Below are positions 19,618 to 60,154 of a stretch of DNA of 64,000 nucleotides, piece by piece. Each line of letters opens with the position of its first letter. Position 1 is the stretch's first letter. The translations under genes and the position numbers were made by a program. The notes beneath the pieces are model-generated. The model was not told the origin of the DNA. It did not search any database and was given only the letters and a program-made list of their open reading frames with translations. The stretch is from Octopus vulgaris (lineage: Eukaryota): assembly GCA_951406725.2 (NCBI GenBank), contig OX597814.1, positions 14,694,001 through 14,758,000 of the forward strand, written 5' to 3'.

Positions 19618-40889
<21,272 letters not shown>

Positions 40890-47422: not shown

Positions 47423-49110
47423 ATCCAAACAAGAAAACACAAAAAACAAAAAAAAACACAACAACTCAAGGACGTGGAACAAATAAAGTATTATTGGACG
47501 CTCAGGAAAGAAGGAAAGTAGGAGGGTTTAACGTTTCGAGCGGAGCTCTTCGTCGGAAACATAGGAGAAGGAAAGATCCCGAGAGGGGAAGACAGAGGAA
47601 ATATATATATATATATATATATAAGCTTACCAAGAGCCATTATTTAGAACTGCTCAAAAGGGAGATACATAAGAATTACAGGACCACCAGTAGGAATACT
47701 CTCAGGCAGGCCAACTTAGAAACTAAGAAGACTATGGAGACTTACGGATTACAAATGAAGACGGAACCATTGAACCCCAGACAACCCAGATTTATCTTAA
47801 AGTACCACAAACAGAACTTTCATACTAACCCAGCATTGCGGCTCGTATGCCCTTCCAGTTCAGACATCGGTACCCTTAGTAAATACATATTAGATAAGTA
47901 TATCCCTATATTAATTAATAAATTAAAACTTAGCTTATGGTCCAACTCTGTTCAAGTCGTAGAGTGGTTTACTTCTATTACTGATAAGGCCAACGCTAAA
48001 TTAATCCAATTCGATATATCTAGTTTCTATCCTTCAATCAACCGTATTATACTTAATAAGGCCCAATGGCACGCACACAATAAGGCAGGCCTCTCCAGGG
48101 AGGAAATTAGTGTGATATTGACTGCTAGGAAATCTTTCATCCAGTTCGATAGCAAGTTGTGGGTCCGTAGAGATACCCCTAATGCGTTTGATATAATAAT
48201 GGGAAGTACAGACAGCGCCCAGATAGCCGATTTGGTCGGAATTTATATTCTTTATGAAATGGCCGACCAATTCCCGGACATCTGTGGGGGGTCTTTATCA
48301 CGACGATTGTCTGCTTTACCTCCAAAACGCTTCGAACCAAAAAATACAGAAGGTTAAGAACAGATTAGTTAGGTTTTTTAGTAGAATGGGCTTGCGCATA
48401 GTTATTGACGATGAATTAGCTAAAGCCAACTTCTTGGACATTACCCTCAATCTGCAGAATAACTCATACTTCCCTTATCATAAACCTTCCACTAATCTTA
48501 AGTATATCAGCATTTTCAGTAATCATGCCAAGCTAATTACCGATAATTTAGTTAAAAACATATCTCTGAGACAGTCCAAATTATCTGCTAATGTCGACAT
48601 CTTTAACCAAAAGGCAGACTTCTACAGCGCCGCCTTGTCAAGAGCCGGTTATAAGGAAAAAGTGTCATACATCGACCCAGCTCATTCTAAACCAGCATCT
48701 GCTTCTTCAGATAGTAAAGTTACTCGTAATAGGAATAATGATTTCAATTCTAATAGTGCCAGCACCCCTGTACATAAAATAAATTATTTACGGACTAAGG
48801 GAGGTAAACGCCATGCAACCCCAAATTTCCAACCCAGAAATTTTCCAATTACTATCACAAACAACACTAAGAACAATTCAAAGGCCACAAAAAAATTATC
48901 TGGTTTGTAATACCTTTCGGAAAACAAATTAAATCGAACTTTCTCTTACAGTTCCGTGAAGCCGTTGCTAGGAACTTTCCTAGAAATTCTAGATATTATT
49001 CTATTATCAATTCACACAAGGTCAGAATTGCTTTCTCTAACACTAGGAATCTTTCACAAATTATATCTTCCCATAATACCAAGCTGCTACACAAAGATTC
49101 TTCACCCGTT
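47418..49110 (+). mobile_element. Penelope-like element RT region (one frameshift near 48290), preceded by an inverted pLTR fragment carrying a mini-hammerhead (47526-47560, minus strand)
   Basis: FILKYHKQNFHTNPALRLVCP, IQFDISSFYPSI, FDIIMGSTDSAQIADLVGIYIL, GLYHDDCL, NFLDITLNL, PYHKP and SNHAK. Homologous to the PLE at 24400-26300. Confidence 0.9.
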
Positions 49111-49710
49111 CTTTTGATAAGGGCAGGAGATTTTGTAACATTTGTAACTCTGAACTCTTCCATATTCTTTTCGCTAAGGTTCCCCTAGTAAACACACTCA
49201 TAGAAAAATCGTACAAATGTAAACACTGGCAGAAACACACTTTCTACTCATATAAATGATAACGGTTGTCACTGTGGTTTGAACAATTAGCTTCACATCC
49301 ACCCCACTGCTATAGAGAAATTCTTTCCTAAGCCTTCGAACATTCTTTCAATCAACATACACTTCCCTCTCCACTTGTTCCCTACCTATTACTCCTTTAT
49401 ACCTTCCCTTACTACTATCTATCTTTGACGTCTGTCTCTCTCTCACACACACATACACAAATGCAGTTATACACACACACATACACACACACACAAACAC
49501 ACGCACTCATTAACACAAGCACACACCCACACATTTCCATACATACTGTCCCCTACCCATTATTACTTTATCCCTTTCCTCCCTCCTATCCATTTTTGAC
49601 GTCAATTCTCCTAACGGTTTTTAAAAAAAACACTCATTATCGCTCTGTTTACCATGTAGGCAATCATCGAAAATTTTTTGTTTGTCTTGTTGTCGAGAGA
49701 GAATTTCTTT

Positions 49711-49792
49711 CTTTCCTGATGAGAAGATTGCATAATGCACCCTTTATTCCTTCGGAATGAAAATATGGTGTCTTGGAAACACGTGTCGAGAG
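49711..49792 (+). ncRNA. Type I hammerhead motif (first stem II pair mutated)
   Basis: CUUUC-CUGAUGA-GAAGA...UCUUG-GAAAC-ACGU-GUC^GAGAG. Confidence 0.72.
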
Positions 49793-49996
49793 TAAAGGAA
49801 TTTTGTTAACATCTTAGTTCGACTCCATTCTTTCATTTATTCATATACAACACACAAATTTCTGCACATGAACACGGAGTTTCTACTCTTGACAGGTCGC
49901 TTCAACCGTGTTTTCTGACGTGAATTTGCTACCCAGGTTTCGGTTAAACGAATTTTCCATGCTGACGATAAACATAGGATAATTCATTCACCTACT

Positions 49997-50165
<169 letters not shown>

Positions 50166-51077: not shown

Positions 51078-51894
51078 CAGATAGCTATCTGTAGTAGACA
51101 ATATAAACTAGATAATGCATTAAAAATAGAACGAGAAAATATATGAAGCAACGTATTTTACATTTAACTTCCTACATACTATGACTACTACGTTCGCAAC
51201 GTAATCCTTCCCACACCCACCCTTTCTTATAAACGGGTAAGTAAACAAACAATAAAAGGAAATATAAGTCATGTTGTTGTTACTATAACTTCTCTTTATA
51301 AATAATAATTTAGCATTCGTAGGATAAATGATAAATTCCCAACGAATTCAATATTTTTTCCTGAATTTAAAAAATTTTATCAGGTAAGTTTTATGTTACA
51401 AAGTGATTTCGCTATGTCAAAGTTTCCTTGGTTGACTCATTAGTATCGAAAAGGAGAACCTATTCACAGACGAAGACAGCACCCTAAGGATATTGTATAT
51501 TTGTTGTGATATGAAGGGTGTCGTCTATCATGAAGTGCTTAAAACACACACACACACAAAAAGGGGAGACGTATAGATTGTGATTCTGCAATCAATAATG
51601 AGGGGAAAGAATTTATTGATTAATTAAATCCAATCAGAGGGAAGAATGATCTTCTACATTCCTCTCTTGACATGCGATAAGAAATTCTTTCCACCCAAAT
51701 ATACAAAAAATACTTCAAAGCGCAATCATTATAATGAGATATCGATATGGATAATTATTTAATTTTCGCTTATTCTTTAAATTATATTATTTACTATATA
51801 TATGTGTATATATATATATATATATATGTATATTACCATGTAGGCAATCATCGAAAATTTTTTGTTTGTCTTGTTGTCGAGAGAGGCTTCCTTT

Positions 51895-51976
51895 CTTTCC
51901 TGATGAGAAGATTGCATAATGCAGCCTTTATTCTTTCGGAATGAAAATATGCTGTCTTCGAAACATGTGTCGAGAG
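51895..51976 (+). ncRNA. Type I hammerhead motif
   Basis: CUUUC-CUGAUGA-GAAGA...UCUUC-GAAAC-AUGU-GUC^GAGAG. Confidence 0.8.
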
Positions 51977-52048
51977 TAAAGGAATTTTGTTAACATCTTC
52001 GTTCGACTCCATTCTTTCATTTAATATATATATGATAATATGTATGTA

Positions 52049-52369: not shown

Positions 52370-52832
52370 ATAGATATCTGTAGCAGACAATATAAACTAG
52401 ATAATGCATTAAAAATAGAACGAGAAAGTACATAAGGCAACGTATTTTACATTCAACTTCCTACTTACTATGACTACTACGTTCGGAACGTAATAATTCT
52501 CATACTTATTATATTATATTTAACTTTTTATACCTTTTTGTTTAGTTAAAAAAAAAATTAAAAATTAAAAAATTTTAAAATATAAAAATTTACAAATATA
52601 TAAATTTTAAAATTTAAAATTTTAATAATTTAAATTTTAAGTTTTATATTTTATATATATACTATATATTATATTAATTATATTTATTTTTTTATGTTTT
52701 GGGTTATGTCTATCACTGTTTGAGTTGCCTAATAGTGGTTTTATCTCTAATTTAATTTATATTTATACTGTGAAATTTGATTTAATCCTAAATTTAATTT
52801 TTCCCTGTAAGTTTGGATATACTCCCTAATAT

Positions 52833-52901
<69 letters not shown>

Positions 52902-53158
52902 CATTTTGCACATTACTTAATCATCGGTATATTATTGTTATTTTATATTATATATCATTTTCTAGATGGTATAATTTAGTTGTTCATTTTGAATTGATAA
53001 AAGGTGTTCTTTTCAAATTTTTATATATATATTATATATTTTGTGAAATTTGATTCAGTATTTCTAAATTGAATTTTCCCTGTAAGTCAGGAATATTATT
53101 CCCTGAAATTATTATTATAGTATATATGTTTAAACCTCGCCAAGATAAATATTTAAAC

Positions 53159-53222
53159 CACCTGATGAATGACTGTAACTCGAAATTTTAAAGAAATTAA
53201 CAGCCATGAAACGATCGTAGTG
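53159..53222 (+). ncRNA. Type I hammerhead motif
   Basis: CAC-CUGAUGA-AUGACUGU...ACAGCCAU-GAAAC-GAUC-GUA^GUG with palindromic stem III ACGAUCGU. Confidence 0.75.
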
Positions 53223-53348
53223 TTATATTAATTATATCTTTTTAATAATTTTGTTATATATTTAAATAATATAAATTAAATAATCTTATGTATTGGCTTA
53301 AGTTTTTCATTGTATGATTTGCCTAATAGTGGTTTTGTCTCTAATTTA

Positions 53349-53434
<86 letters not shown>

Positions 53435-54670: not shown

Positions 54671-56155
54671 TTATGAATAAAACGTTTTCCAGTTTTTCAA
54701 TTTCGTCGTGTTTACGTTTCATATTGACTCCCGTTTCCTCCACTAATAATTTAGACCCTCTGTTCACACACACACACAGTTTGTAGCTACTTCAGTCACA
54801 CTTAGTTTATACTTATACAATCCATCTGCACAATCATTTGAACGTTTGAGGACAATCATCGTATTATACAGAATACCACATTCGTGGTTGCAGCCTCTCG
54901 CTGCCTAACAACTTTCTACAGTAACAAACTTTTTCAGTACATAATGACGGAAAAACTGTTGAATCATGAATAATTTTCAGCAACCAGGGAGAGGTTGAGC
55001 GTTCAAGGATGATATCAGTAGAAAGAGAAGATTCTAATGCGCAACTGGTATCGATCATGAAAGGATGAAAGAACATTGCCGGAATCTTTTACATGGCGTG
55101 TAGAGGGTACCGCCACCCTATCGCCTGTTAATATTGATAAAGAAATTTCAGAAAAAGAACTAACTTCATATTTGTATATCAATTTGCGACCAATGATGAT
55201 TCCTTATTTTCAAATTAAACTGTGAGAGAAATTTAAAAGTAAAATCTAATGTAGGTCACACTTATTGAGAAGACTTACATTAGCAGTTGATTTCCATGCA
55301 GGAGTACAACAATGTGTGGAAAATGAAAGCGGTGCATAATATAGAAAGTAGGAGTGGCAGTAGACACATATTTGAATTCCGAAGTTAACAAGGTCAGCTG
55401 TTTATTTGCTTTTATTACTACATTATTAGTCAGAGAATGTAGGGTGAAAGCTAATACTTTTTGGTGTTTAATAACTATTTTGTTTATAGATAAAGCATGC
55501 ATTTTCCAATTGTTCTAAGACTTAAATACGGAACAATTGTGCTGTCACCACGTTGTTCTTTACAATTTTCCTGCAAGCAAAATCGTAAATTAGGGATCAA
55601 TGGTAGTATATATAAAAGACCATGAAAACCTTTTGCTTTAAATGCATTTATTACAAGAAAGAGCTACGTTACTTTGTTTAATGTTTTGCATAGTTAAATA
55701 TGTTTCCGGCTACTGAAACATGGCCTCTTAAAGTGTACTACTGTAAACCGGCACAAGTAAATATCCAAAGAAGAAAATAGGAATTTTAAAAGACCTACGA
55801 GAGTCTTAAAACAATGAAAGGCTGAAGTGTCAGGATATAAAAGATACTAATAACATAGATGTCGACTTTGCTAAACAACCGCTTGTACTTGATTAGATCT
55901 TTACGAGGGACAATAAAATAGCTATAATATTCTCAAAGATGTGTGACATTGTAAAACATCTTACAGACATGTAGTTTGAAATCGTAATATAAATCTAAAT
56001 TTGATTGATAGGTGCGATCTCATACGTATAATATACATGAATAACGTCATATATCTCCATACAATTTTATATATGTATGTATATATGCATGTACACATGT
56101 ATGTATGTATGTATGTATATATCTATATCTATCTATCTGGTTATCTATCTATTTA

Positions 56156-56232
<77 letters not shown>

Positions 56233-56258
56233 ACATACATATACATACATATACATAC

Positions 56259-56328
<70 letters not shown>

Positions 56329-56712
56329 ATAATATTAGGGAATGAATCCAAACTTACACGGAAAAATGAGATTTAGGATTAAATCCACATTTATAGTATA
56401 AATATATTATATTATATTATATTATATTAAATTAGAGATAAAACCACCATTAGGCAAATCAAACAGTGAAAAACATAAGCCAATACATAAAATTAATTTA
56501 AAATATAAAAGTTAAAAATAAAAAATTATTTAAGTAATTTAAACTTATAAATTTTATATATATATACAAATATATATATATATGTATGTAAGAATATTTG
56601 TATATTTATATATTATTTTAATTATTAATTAATTAATTAAGTAATTAATTTTTTAATTTTTTATATATATATATCAAAAGTATTAAAAGTTTAATAAAAG
56701 ATAAAGAGTAAA

Positions 56713-56805
56713 ACACTACGATTGTTTCATGGCTGTACCAATTCGAATAACAATAATTTAAATTCAATTAATAATTCGAGTTATGGTTACAGTCAATCTT
56801 CAGGT
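56713..56805 (-). ncRNA. Type I hammerhead motif, related to 53159-53222
   Basis: AC-CUGAAGA-UUGACUGUA...UACAGCCAU-GAAAC-AAUC-GUA^GUG with a weak stem I. Confidence 0.55.
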
Positions 56806-58246
56806 TAATTGAAATATTTAAAAAATAATCAGAAATATTTAAACAATATTTTTAAGATGTAAATAATATAATAATTTTACTTATAATAAACTCTATTATC
56901 AAACTAGAAACTTAAAACTTAACAATTATGATTATATCCAAATCGATTATATTAATTATTAATTTTAATTTATAAGGTAGGAAACCCACCATTAATTTAA
57001 TATCGGTAATAGTCTATATCTAATTACATAAATATTTTTAAAAAATAACTTTTATATATAAATTATCAATGAAAATATATAAATGTATATAAATATTATA
57101 ATTAAGATCTAAAATAATCTCTATAAATAAATATATATGCACATATAATAAAAACCTAATAAATTAATTTTTCATATTTAAAGATGAAATAGCTAATTTC
57201 AAAAATACAAACAAATAAACTTAAACGAACTTTCGGAAATCTTATGTAAAATACTTATAGAAATAATCATTCGTAGTTATATAGTATCGAATAAATACTA
57301 TAAATACCATAAATATAATTATCAATGGGAATAACTAGCGAATATCAATTTTAAAAGACAATAACTAAGTTATGCTATTAAGTTAGACATGGCCTGGACC
57401 AATCTTTAGTCAAACATATCTAAGTTTATCAAAGTTTATCTAATTTTAATTATAAGAAATTTAAAACTACAATTAATACTATTAATACATGTATATACAA
57501 AAGCCTAACTTTAGACACCTCGTATATTTGCTATCAAACATAAATCTATCGCTAAGTAGTATCTTACGAATAAACTTAAATTTAATATCTAATAATATAG
57601 AAAATTACGATAATTAGATCATTACATAAACAACAATATTTTCAGAAGTAATATTTTATTACACCAAAGACTTATAAAATATTAAAATTTACTATTTAAA
57701 GATCTTAAATTTAAATAAATACCTATCTTAGCGAGGTTTTGTAATGAACAAAAATTTTGAATCGGAAAACTTCTTTACAGCGTTTATAAGAATACTCGTG
57801 GAACTACGTTATTAGCAAAAAAAGAATAAATTGTTGAAGAATTCATTAAGCGTGAGGAACAAATACTCTTTATCAATGAAGATGAATGGTTTATCAGTGT
57901 AAATAGAATGAAGTCACAAATAAAGAATAAAATCACTCTATACTATAAGATTTATTAATAAAATAACTATGATAAATAATACTTAATACAAAATAAATTA
58001 AATAATTTAAATGATTAAAAACCACTAATTATTAAATATATTCTTAAAATCTTATATGATTAATAAATATATAAAAAATTTTTTTTATAGTAACCCCTCA
58101 TCGTACTATAAAGTCTTTCCGCATGCTCTTATAATTATAAGCTAAAATTAGTGATCATAACCAAAATCTCTAAAATACTTATCAAAATTTGCAGTATAAC
58201 TATACATATGTATACATATATACATATATATACATACATATACATA

Positions 58247-58288
<42 letters not shown>

Positions 58289-59153
58289 CACATACATGCA
58301 CACATACATACATATACATATATACACACATATATACACACACATACTGACATACACATATGCACACACATATATACATGTACATACATACAATACTCAA
58401 TATATACACATACACCTATATACACCCACCCACACACACACATAAATATACATATACATATATATACACGCACATCAACATATACACATATATACATACA
58501 CACCTAAACACATAATAATATATCATATAATAAATACGTATATAAATGTCTATATTCATACTACAATACATAAATAGAGGTAAACGTTAAGTTTAATCTA
58601 AATATTTAATATTACTAATCTATACTTCTATATTAAATAAAATAGATTAAATAAACAACTAAATAAATCTATTTCAGATATAAAGAGATTACATACAAAT
58701 AGATTAATTTAACAAAATTATAATTTAACAAAATTATAACAGAAATATAACAAAATATATAAACTTAACTTTATTAAAAGATAAATAAAATTGTAACTTA
58801 CCAAACTCTATATTCAATAAACCTTTAAATATTTATTAAAAAATATATTTAGTAATAAATTTAGTAATAAAATAAACAACTATATATAATCTAACTATAA
58901 TTAAAAACAGAACCTAAATAACTAAAATAAACTAATATAATAAGTACTACATATTACCTGTTATATTTAGAATACTATTACATAAATCAACAAATAAGGA
59001 GCTAATTAAGGCTAATAAATATTCATTATTTATCAAGAAATTTATTATATAAGTAAAGTAACTTGTGTCTGCATTTTATTTTGCGCTCATCCCAAGTATT
59101 CACTAAATTATCATGCTTATAAAATAAAATTTCCTTAAACTCATAAATAACAA

Positions 59154-59213
59154 AAGCCGCGGGCGCGAGCCCGGGTGAAGCCGACCGCGGATGCAGATCT
59201 CGGTGGTAGTAGC
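59154..59213 (+). pseudogene. ~60-bp 28S rRNA-derived fragment
   Basis: AAGCCGCGGGCGCGAGCCCGGGTGAAGCCGACCGCGGATGCAGATCTCGGTGGTAGTAGC closely resembles the conserved eukaryotic LSU segment ending GCAGATCTTGGTGGTAGTAGC (from recall). Confidence 0.8.
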
Positions 59214-59247
59214 TCCTAAGAGCCCATGGCCATGGGCTCTTAGGAGC
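59212..59247. repeat. Perfect 36-bp palindrome
   Basis: GCTCCTAAGAGCCCATGG|CCATGGGCTCTTAGGAGC. Confidence 0.97.
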
Positions 59248-59312
59248 CTCGTCCGATTTGTTTTGCTGCGCCTCTGTTCTGTTTTTGTTTTTGCCAACGG
59301 ATTTCCTATTTC

Positions 59313-59392
59313 TTCCTGAAGAGAAAGACACAATATGGTCTCCTTGTTCAATCGGAATTTGGTAAATTGTGGCTTTTGAAACACGTGTAGAA
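59313..59392 (+). ncRNA. Type I hammerhead motif
   Basis: UUC-CUGAAGA-GAAAG.CACAAU...AUUGUG.CUUUU-GAAAC-ACGU-GUA^GAA. Confidence 0.78.
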
Positions 59393-59447
59393 TGCAATAA
59401 AACGATTTCTGTTCAATCTTCGTTCAACTCCATTTCTTCAATTCACT

Positions 59448-59493
<46 letters not shown>

Positions 59494-59513
59494 GTATTTA
59501 TATATATATATAA

Positions 59514-59562
<49 letters not shown>

Positions 59563-60154
59563 TATATATATAATTGCATGCATAAGAATTATGCAAACTA
59601 CAAGAACTATAGACCTACCCGGCAACCAGATTGATGACACCCCACCCACAAACCCCCCCAATCCCACCGTTCCCCTAGCACCCCCGACTACCTTTTCTCC
59701 TAAGACCTTTCACATATTGTATGTGCACGCTTGTATATGTATATCGTATATATGTATAGAAATGTATGGGTATAGTAGGAATATACGCATGTATTATATG
59801 TGTGTGAGTGTGTGTATGTATGTAAAAATATATATATATATGTATGTGTGTGTGTGTGTGTGTATATATATGTATATATGTATATATGTGTGTATGCATA
59901 TGTATGTGTATATGTATGTGTGTATGTATGTGTATGTATATATAAAATATTATATAATTAGGGCTTAGTAAAATAAATTACTTTGCCACATACTGAACTT
60001 TCTAGAAATAGCAGCCAAATAAGTTTTTTAGCCTTTTCCACTACTTAAAGAAAATTTTCTCTCAGACAATGTTTACTCAAAAAAATAATGGTCCTTTTAC
60101 ATACTGAATACTTGGTGAAATTGATTAATAACTAATTAACTTTACCCTCAATTG

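Follow-up and report, generated by a model that had tools for sequence, protein, structure and literature searches.

A 28S rRNA fragment and a fold-back palindrome at the 5' junction of a truncated Penelope-like element in Octopus vulgaris: probable by-products of one insertion

Results

Layout of the locus

The locus lies in a 64,000-nt stretch of Octopus vulgaris DNA (hereafter the window; C1:14694001-14758000) within a 2.8-Gb assembly of 227 contigs. A check of the sequence placed an rRNA piece, a palindrome and a hammerhead ribozyme core within 59154-59392, all three adjacent and on one strand. They form part of a larger head-to-head structure between two (TA)n tracts, in which an arm of one Penelope-like family (X, minus strand, ending in its long end) is followed by the 28S piece (plus strand), a short inverted stub (minus strand) and an arm of a second family (Y, plus strand, ending in its short end; Table 1). 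The 3' ends of X and Y both point outward, and there is no host DNA at the X/28S/Y join. The right (TA)n tract, correctly noticed downstream of the hammerhead by a first-pass annotation of the window, also holds a perfect 50-bp palindrome (59481-59530) whose interruptions are mirrored. The sequence is real, its parts are ordinary, and it contains one chimeric junction of an already known kind.

Table 1. Features of the composite locus (positions in the window)
Feature	Position	Strand	Remarks
Left flank, (TATC)n/(TA)n microsatellite	56068..56324	.	Target of the X arm 3' end
Family X Penelope-like arm	56325..59156	-	Truncated on its 5' side, within the last part of the endonuclease coding region; 3' end with long tail
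Family X type I hammerhead core	56717..56803	-	Stem III palindrome altered at one position here
Family X ORF, last codons and stop	59026..59156	-	
Host 28S rRNA fragment, 60 nt	59154..59213	+	Same sense as the Y arm
Inverted family Y stub, 18 nt; fold-back copy forming the left half of the palindrome	59212..59229	-	Precedents at L072, L102 and L186
Perfect 36-bp palindrome	59212..59247	.	Centre is the native 6-nt palindrome of family Y
Family Y Penelope-like arm	59227..59452	+	Last ~226 nt of the pseudo-LTR, to the short (tail-less) 3' end
Family Y pseudo-LTR type I hammerhead	59313..59392	+	Predicted cut after 59389; palindromic stem III 59381-59388
Right flank, (TA)n target	59452..59572	.	

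Two Penelope-like families

Judged by its sequence, the arm to the right of the palindrome is the 3' end of a young, Hydra-like family of Penelope-like elements, which we named Y. The family comprises at least 1,147 arms, as counted by matches to a 29-mer near its 3' end, and a 22-mer adjoining the palindrome has 772 matches. When the genome was searched with 59150-59455, the only full-length match among the best 40 of 1,558 candidates scored was the window itself; the other matches in that set begin at 59227, or, in cases of two copies joined head to head, at 59212. A full-length copy (L193:2902-5613, on contig C26 near 10.44 Mb) carries an intact RT-endonuclease ORF of 903 aa, and the family may still be active. 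This ORF has the RT-type motifs D-I-A-S and Y-R-D-D, a Y-V-G...R motif, and the Hydra-clade motifs SDKT (at 121; DKT in place of DKG) and RIRW (at 35; RWK-type). The linker between RT and endonuclease is Ser/Asn-rich and has a single Cys at the CxCX5C site, and CxxC and xxH motifs are found at the endonuclease end. The N-terminal 480 residues have Atlas neighbours at 0.93-0.97, of whose members 16-84% carry HTH_animal and RVT_1, and the C-terminus has neighbours at 0.95-0.96, one set of which carries GIY-YIG on 11%. Pfam and PDB sequence searches with the full ORF returned no RT or GIY-YIG match, and Pfam searches with three ORF pieces gave nothing useful. Family Y thus combines the features of EN+ Penelope-like elements, namely a single ORF with RT and C-terminal GIY-YIG, pseudo-LTRs, and a hammerhead within the pseudo-LTR. 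The 3' flanks of its copies indicate insertion into (TA)n, not rDNA. Since Y has protein-coding copies of its own, the retrozyme family suggested in the first-pass annotation does not apply; identity with a non-LTR retrozyme was likewise rejected, the locus being a single arm of a protein-coding family with no tandem unit.

The AT-rich DNA to the left of the 28S piece belongs to a second Penelope-like family, X, which the first-pass annotation had overlooked, and the mitochondrial origin considered for this flank was dropped on that account. Other X copies extend past 59156 into an RT-endonuclease ORF (L058). The X and Y proteins are 49% identical in RT; X has the motifs SDKT and IKWK, and its linker Cys pattern reads C-T-C-R in one copy and C-R-D-K-T-K-C in another. 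In the X ORFs (L058, L060 and L065), RT and endonuclease are separated by a long linker rich in Asn, which recalls the N-rich inserts of rotifer Penelope elements. X has its own hammerhead, and the copy in the window ends with a long tail at the left (TA)n, as do five of nine other X ends in being long. Near-private changes number 1 in 226 positions of the Y arm, 7 in 569 of X and 1 in 60 of the 28S piece (X vs Y, Fisher p 0.45).

Further Penelope-like copies were observed in the window. Near-identical hammerheads at 23278 (minus) and 26923 (plus) frame another head-to-head insertion, with RT and endonuclease remnants at about 26282-24400 on the minus strand. A sister family of Y, named Z (~70% amino-acid identity to Y in RT), is represented at 47620-49998 by a long-tailed copy with a hammerhead at 49716 and at 51830-52025 by a short arm with a hammerhead at 51900. 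Tandem X-related 3' ends occupy 52500-53360, where the hammerhead at 53162 has a shorter stem II.

Family Y insertions are two-armed, one arm long and one short

We surveyed 114 other Y insertions (L073-L102, L135-L192 and L227-L275), of which 77 were drawn from the first 100 matches listed for the 22-mer, leaving out duplicates of one insertion and the window itself. The other 37 were taken from the first 100 listed for the 29-mer, and 19 of these were chosen because they were apparently unpaired. Two head-to-head arms were found in 71, one arm in 42 and no 3' end in one; the one-armed count refers to the stretch examined, and some partners lie beyond it. In all 71 two-armed insertions, scored by their outermost arms, a tailed arm (~160 nt longer) is paired with a tail-less one. 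This scoring covers three special cases: L082, whose three arms include an inner short+short pair; L244, with a gap of 190 nt; and L259, for which the contiguous arm was used. Both end types, tailed and tail-less, occur in family Z as well. The rule of one tailed and one tail-less arm fits two start sites on opposite target strands. No tRNA was found at the junction among 24 one-armed junction flanks. In the 5' flank at L169, sequence resembling the RT of another retroelement, which we take to be Penelope/Neptune-like, is fused to the Y arm with matching orientation.

Among the 114 insertions, no Y arm was found to be partnered by an X arm. A single further mixed pair was found (L142:2130-2691, equal to L276); it consists of a Y arm abutting a Z-type arm, both with short ends, and is probably sequential in origin. 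Penelope-like remnants close to L143 and L153 were set aside, since they are not contiguous with the Y arm.

The hammerhead ribozyme

The first-pass annotation had described an intact type I hammerhead about 65 nt beyond the palindrome. A core does begin 68 nt past it, at 59316-59389, with CUGAAGA at 59316-59322, GAAA at 59378-59381, a 12-bp stem II (59323-59334/59366-59377) enclosing a 31-nt loop, and a palindromic stem III (8 nt, 2-nt loop). The type I features CUGANGA/GAAA/UH, three stems and a covarying stem II are all found; as to intactness, the conserved closing pair of stem II (G10.1-C11.1) is replaced by G-U in the window copy, and a monomer fold as a hammerhead is not predicted (z +1.26; stem II pair probabilities 0.00). 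The same G-U occurs in two rows of an older Y subfamily in an alignment of eight rows drawn from Y, this older subfamily and family Z, with G-C in four of the eight. In this alignment the structure pairs in 93% of cells (35-53% for slid controls) and two-sided changes are seen at 5 of the 12 stem II pairs; the covariation score was reached by none of 500 shuffles, a test that is inflated by the relatedness of the rows. At least six further hammerhead cores of this type are present in the window, and the hammerhead at the locus is therefore ordinary. On these sequence grounds it is the type I ribozyme of the family Y terminal repeat, with cleavage predicted, and the assignment of the hammerhead to a Penelope-like terminal repeat made in the first-pass annotation holds.

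The palindrome as a probable fold-back stub

The palindrome is perfect over 36 bp and shares 2 nt with the rRNA piece as originally described; apart from DNA derived from (TA)n, the window contains none longer. It is centred on a hexamer palindrome native to Y, and its left half repeats the following 18 nt in inverted orientation. In a pattern search of the genome, the 20-nt centre occurs at four loci, vs 772 matches of the adjoining 22-mer. At L072, L102 and L186, too, the sequence jumps from a stub to the partner arm; the stub of L072 is 17 nt long and ends within one base of the end of that in the window. Thus, the palindrome is likely to be the usual inverted 5' junction of family Y, that is, an 18-nt fold-back stub left as a by-product of insertion. 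No truncation hot spot at the native hexamer is claimed, the first sample having been picked via a pattern adjoining it.

It could also be that a Y-Y head-to-head pair was inserted first, that its palindrome later broke, and that the left arm was deleted and a scrap of 28S cDNA or rDNA patched in and joined to X. Long palindromes are fragile, which lends this account support, and the genome does contain complete Y-Y pairs with the same hexamer at their centre (L002/L003 and L070). We nevertheless regard such later repair as unlikely, because at L072, L102 and L186 short stubs arose at insertion with the partner arm intact, so that the deletion of a long arm need not be invoked, and because the sense of the 28S piece is the one expected from the same cDNA strand.

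The 28S rRNA fragment is a one-off

The piece recognised as LSU rRNA in the first-pass annotation is indeed such a segment, identical at 59 of 60 positions and in sense orientation to the 28S rDNA of the genome itself, with a single G>A change at 59191. The source match is a tandem rDNA array on contig C20 with a period of ~18 kb, and the array region matches Rfam RF02543 (LSU_rRNA_eukarya) with an E-value of 2.5e-98, the piece corresponding to about positions 1406-1464 of the 3401 of the model. When Rfam was run on the window itself, neither the 60-nt piece nor the hammerhead was called at the gathering score; the matches in the window at E-values up to 10 were to miRNA models only, driven by microsatellites, and were discarded. 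In the units of the C20 array, a stretch of ~520 nt is duplicated inside 28S. Outside the array, dispersed pieces of 28S rDNA number in the dozens and lie on many contigs.

Both the left|28S and the 28S|stub junction have one match in the 2.8-Gb genome at up to one mismatch. No rDNA is present at the junction in any of the 114 other Y insertions, nor in 62 further Y loci that overlap partly with them, and 14 other 28S-matching loci that were inspected all continue as rDNA on both sides, so that there is no family of 60-nt 28S pieces. A 28S-derived SINE or other multi-copy rRNA-headed element was ruled out by the single-copy junction. Two matches to the rDNA unit lying off the junctions were set aside, one of 46 nt, 80% and purine-rich (L250) and one of 25 nt, 1.3 kb from the arm (L005). 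At the right join, the rRNA piece and the palindrome have a 2-nt microhomology in common (GC, 59212-59213), and at the left join 2-3 nt are shared with X, the third base being present in 4 of 26 X copies. An RNA and an rDNA template are indistinguishable from 60 nt of mature rRNA sequence. The (TA)n target would mask any target-site duplication, and the sense orientation together with the microhomology would fit a chimeric insertion of the LINE-1 type.

These observations bear on the original proposal of a functional module, made up of all three parts and belonging to a Penelope-like or retrozyme family, with the rRNA piece guiding the element to ribosomes or rDNA and the palindrome dimerising the ribozyme. 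That the three parts are real, adjacent and on one strand agrees with it. A family module would be expected in more than one copy, and the count of copies retaining all three parts, proposed at the outset as a check, gave precisely the outcome named as refuting: within this assembly, the three-part junction is found at this locus only. Furthermore, the 28S piece is sense and hence does not pair with rRNA, Y targets (TA)n and not rDNA, and the 36-mer folds on itself (predicted -30 kcal/mol) and gives no help to stem II formation in folding predictions. A functional module is accordingly hardly credible, and the added parts are neither needed by nor transmitted in family Y. The dimerising role would, from the predicted structure, belong to the 8-nt palindrome of stem III instead of the 36-bp palindrome.

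As to independent support for the junctions, no bridging piece was found among the matches listed in four public runs (contigs only), in which contigs reaching 59154 and 59213 continue as normal rDNA. Among the 24 public runs listed in a word screen, all of them available as contigs, none contained half of the words, and no empty allele of the composite was seen. The private base of the window at 59346 is absent in three of the four runs, which speaks neither for the presence nor for the absence of the junctions. The lack of bridging contigs is what an assembly mis-join or a library chimera would produce; such an artefact is very improbable, however, in that each part carries its own substitutions relative to its source, both joins show microhomology, and the layout follows the pattern of Y insertions.

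Discussion

Most likely, the stretch studied here is where a single truncated copy of family Y has its 5' junction, the ribozyme coming from its own terminal repeat and the palindrome and the 28S piece being by-products of one insertion. In favour of by-products is that inverted 5' junctions are the norm in Y, as illustrated by the two head-to-head arms in 71 of 114 insertions. The identity, orientation and copy number of the parts and their head-to-head layout were observed directly, and from them we infer a series of steps. The Y endonuclease would nick a (TA)n tract, and reverse transcription would begin at the short 3' end. After ~226 nt, the end of the cDNA, carrying the self-complementary hexamer, would fold back and be extended by 18 nt, giving the palindrome. 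The enzyme would then jump via the 2-nt match onto 28S rRNA and copy 60 nt, and the resulting end would be joined via the 2-3-nt match into X sequence, most likely a pre-existing X copy, with loss of the intervening DNA. By analogy with LINE-1, a template jump onto rRNA during insertion appears to be the best reading and a probable one; template switching had already been suggested in the first-pass annotation, and the one-off sense piece with its microhomologies makes it likely.

Only the last of these steps would differ if X and Y had been inserted together, by twin priming with RNAs of two families. In that event, one (TA)n strand would have been primed on a tailed-start X RNA and the other on a short-start Y RNA, and the two cDNAs joined via the stub and the 28S filler. 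The (TA)n on both sides, the outward 3' ends and the absence of host DNA at the join would all be explained, and a long X with a short Y has the polarity of all 71 two-armed Y-Y insertions; the ages of X and Y are not distinguishable. In addition, in the available text of PMC11167929, purified Penelope protein is described as cutting and extending both strands, with two start sites and a predicted dimer. On the other hand, complementary polarity would arise by chance about 50% of the time, given that five of nine other X ends are long, and the point estimate of divergence makes X older (1.2% vs 0.4%, p 0.45). The lack of an X partner in the other Y insertions, the short+short, probably sequential nature of the sole other mixed pair, and an identity between X and Y of just 49% in RT also argue against joint insertion, as does the rotifer, for which the accessible part of PMC3846280 describes an absence of cross-mobilisation between types of Penelope-like elements. 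Joint insertion is thus possible, and we hold it only tentatively, preferring the joining of the Y cDNA into an X copy already in place.

The C-terminal EN+ Penelope-like elements of the Hydra clade (Craig et al. 2021, PMC8557442) are the closest point of comparison. As in the elements described in the parts of that paper available, Y has RT followed by a C-terminal GIY-YIG-like domain, DKT, RW/KWK near the N-terminus, CxxC and xxH at the endonuclease end, a hammerhead in the pseudo-LTR, (TA)n targets, an inverted 5'-truncated arm, and a tail at one end only. Relative to the same description, Y differs in its size (~3.7 kb), in its long low-complexity linker without a clear CxCX5C, and in its tail of ~160 nt vs 30-40 bp. 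By its motifs, hammerhead and (TA)n targets, Y matches the clade as described there and is called Hydra-like here; the SDKT and IKWK motifs of X are likewise of the type given for the clade.

Palindromes of 18 bp and 38 bp at the 5' ends of pseudo-LTRs of Adineta vaga Penelope elements have been read as self-priming (Arkhipova et al. 2013, PMC3846280, in the portion accessible). From that portion, the rotifer elements resemble the octopus locus in microhomology joins, in unrelated sequence captured beside pseudo-LTRs and in Asn-rich ORF inserts, whereas the rRNA filler and the two-family head-to-head pair are seen only at the octopus locus. For LINE-1, the available text of PMC13174262 reports one-off sense 28S fragments at 5' ends (n = 18, 50-482 nt, 83% sense), read as products of template switching or RNA ligation. 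The octopus locus likewise is a one-off in which a truncated retroelement has a short piece of sense 28S at its 5' end; unlike the LINE-1 chimeras as described there, the carrier is a Penelope-like element, element and rRNA are separated by a fold-back stub, and a target-site duplication would not be readable in (TA)n.

The ribozyme resembles the hammerheads of Penelope-like pseudo-LTRs, as far as these are covered by the accessible part of Cervera and de la Pena 2014 (PMC4209133), in its type I topology, its weak palindromic helix III and the predicted need for a dimer, low monomer activity being known for those described. It differs from them in the longer stem II (12 bp with a 31-nt loop) and in the G-U that replaces the conserved G10.1-C11.1. 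Metazoan non-LTR retrozymes also have type I hammerheads related to those of Penelope-like pseudo-LTRs, according to the available part of bioRxiv 10.64898/2026.07.22.740005; unlike those non-coding tandem arrays, the locus consists of just one truncated arm, from a family that codes for protein. In the openly available main texts that were searched, we found no Penelope-like element joined to rRNA and no two-family head-to-head pair of such elements.

The locus offers one clear example of a Penelope-type RT that, at a 5' junction, likely switched to host rRNA after folding back, in a LINE-1-like manner. More useful than this one-off junction is the side result that long and short arms are paired in 71 of 71 two-armed insertions, as scored, a genomic pattern that agrees with the use of two start sites and the extension of both strands in vitro. 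Mixed-family pairs bear on how the inverted ends of Penelope-like elements form, a question left open in the available text of the Hydra-clade paper (PMC8557442). If the X and Y arms were indeed inserted jointly, a single insertion would have used three RNAs (tailed X, short-start Y and the 28S filler), the inverted arms of Penelope elements would be copied from separate templates, even from families 49% identical in RT, and the strict rule of one long and one short arm would stem from a two-strand priming complex.
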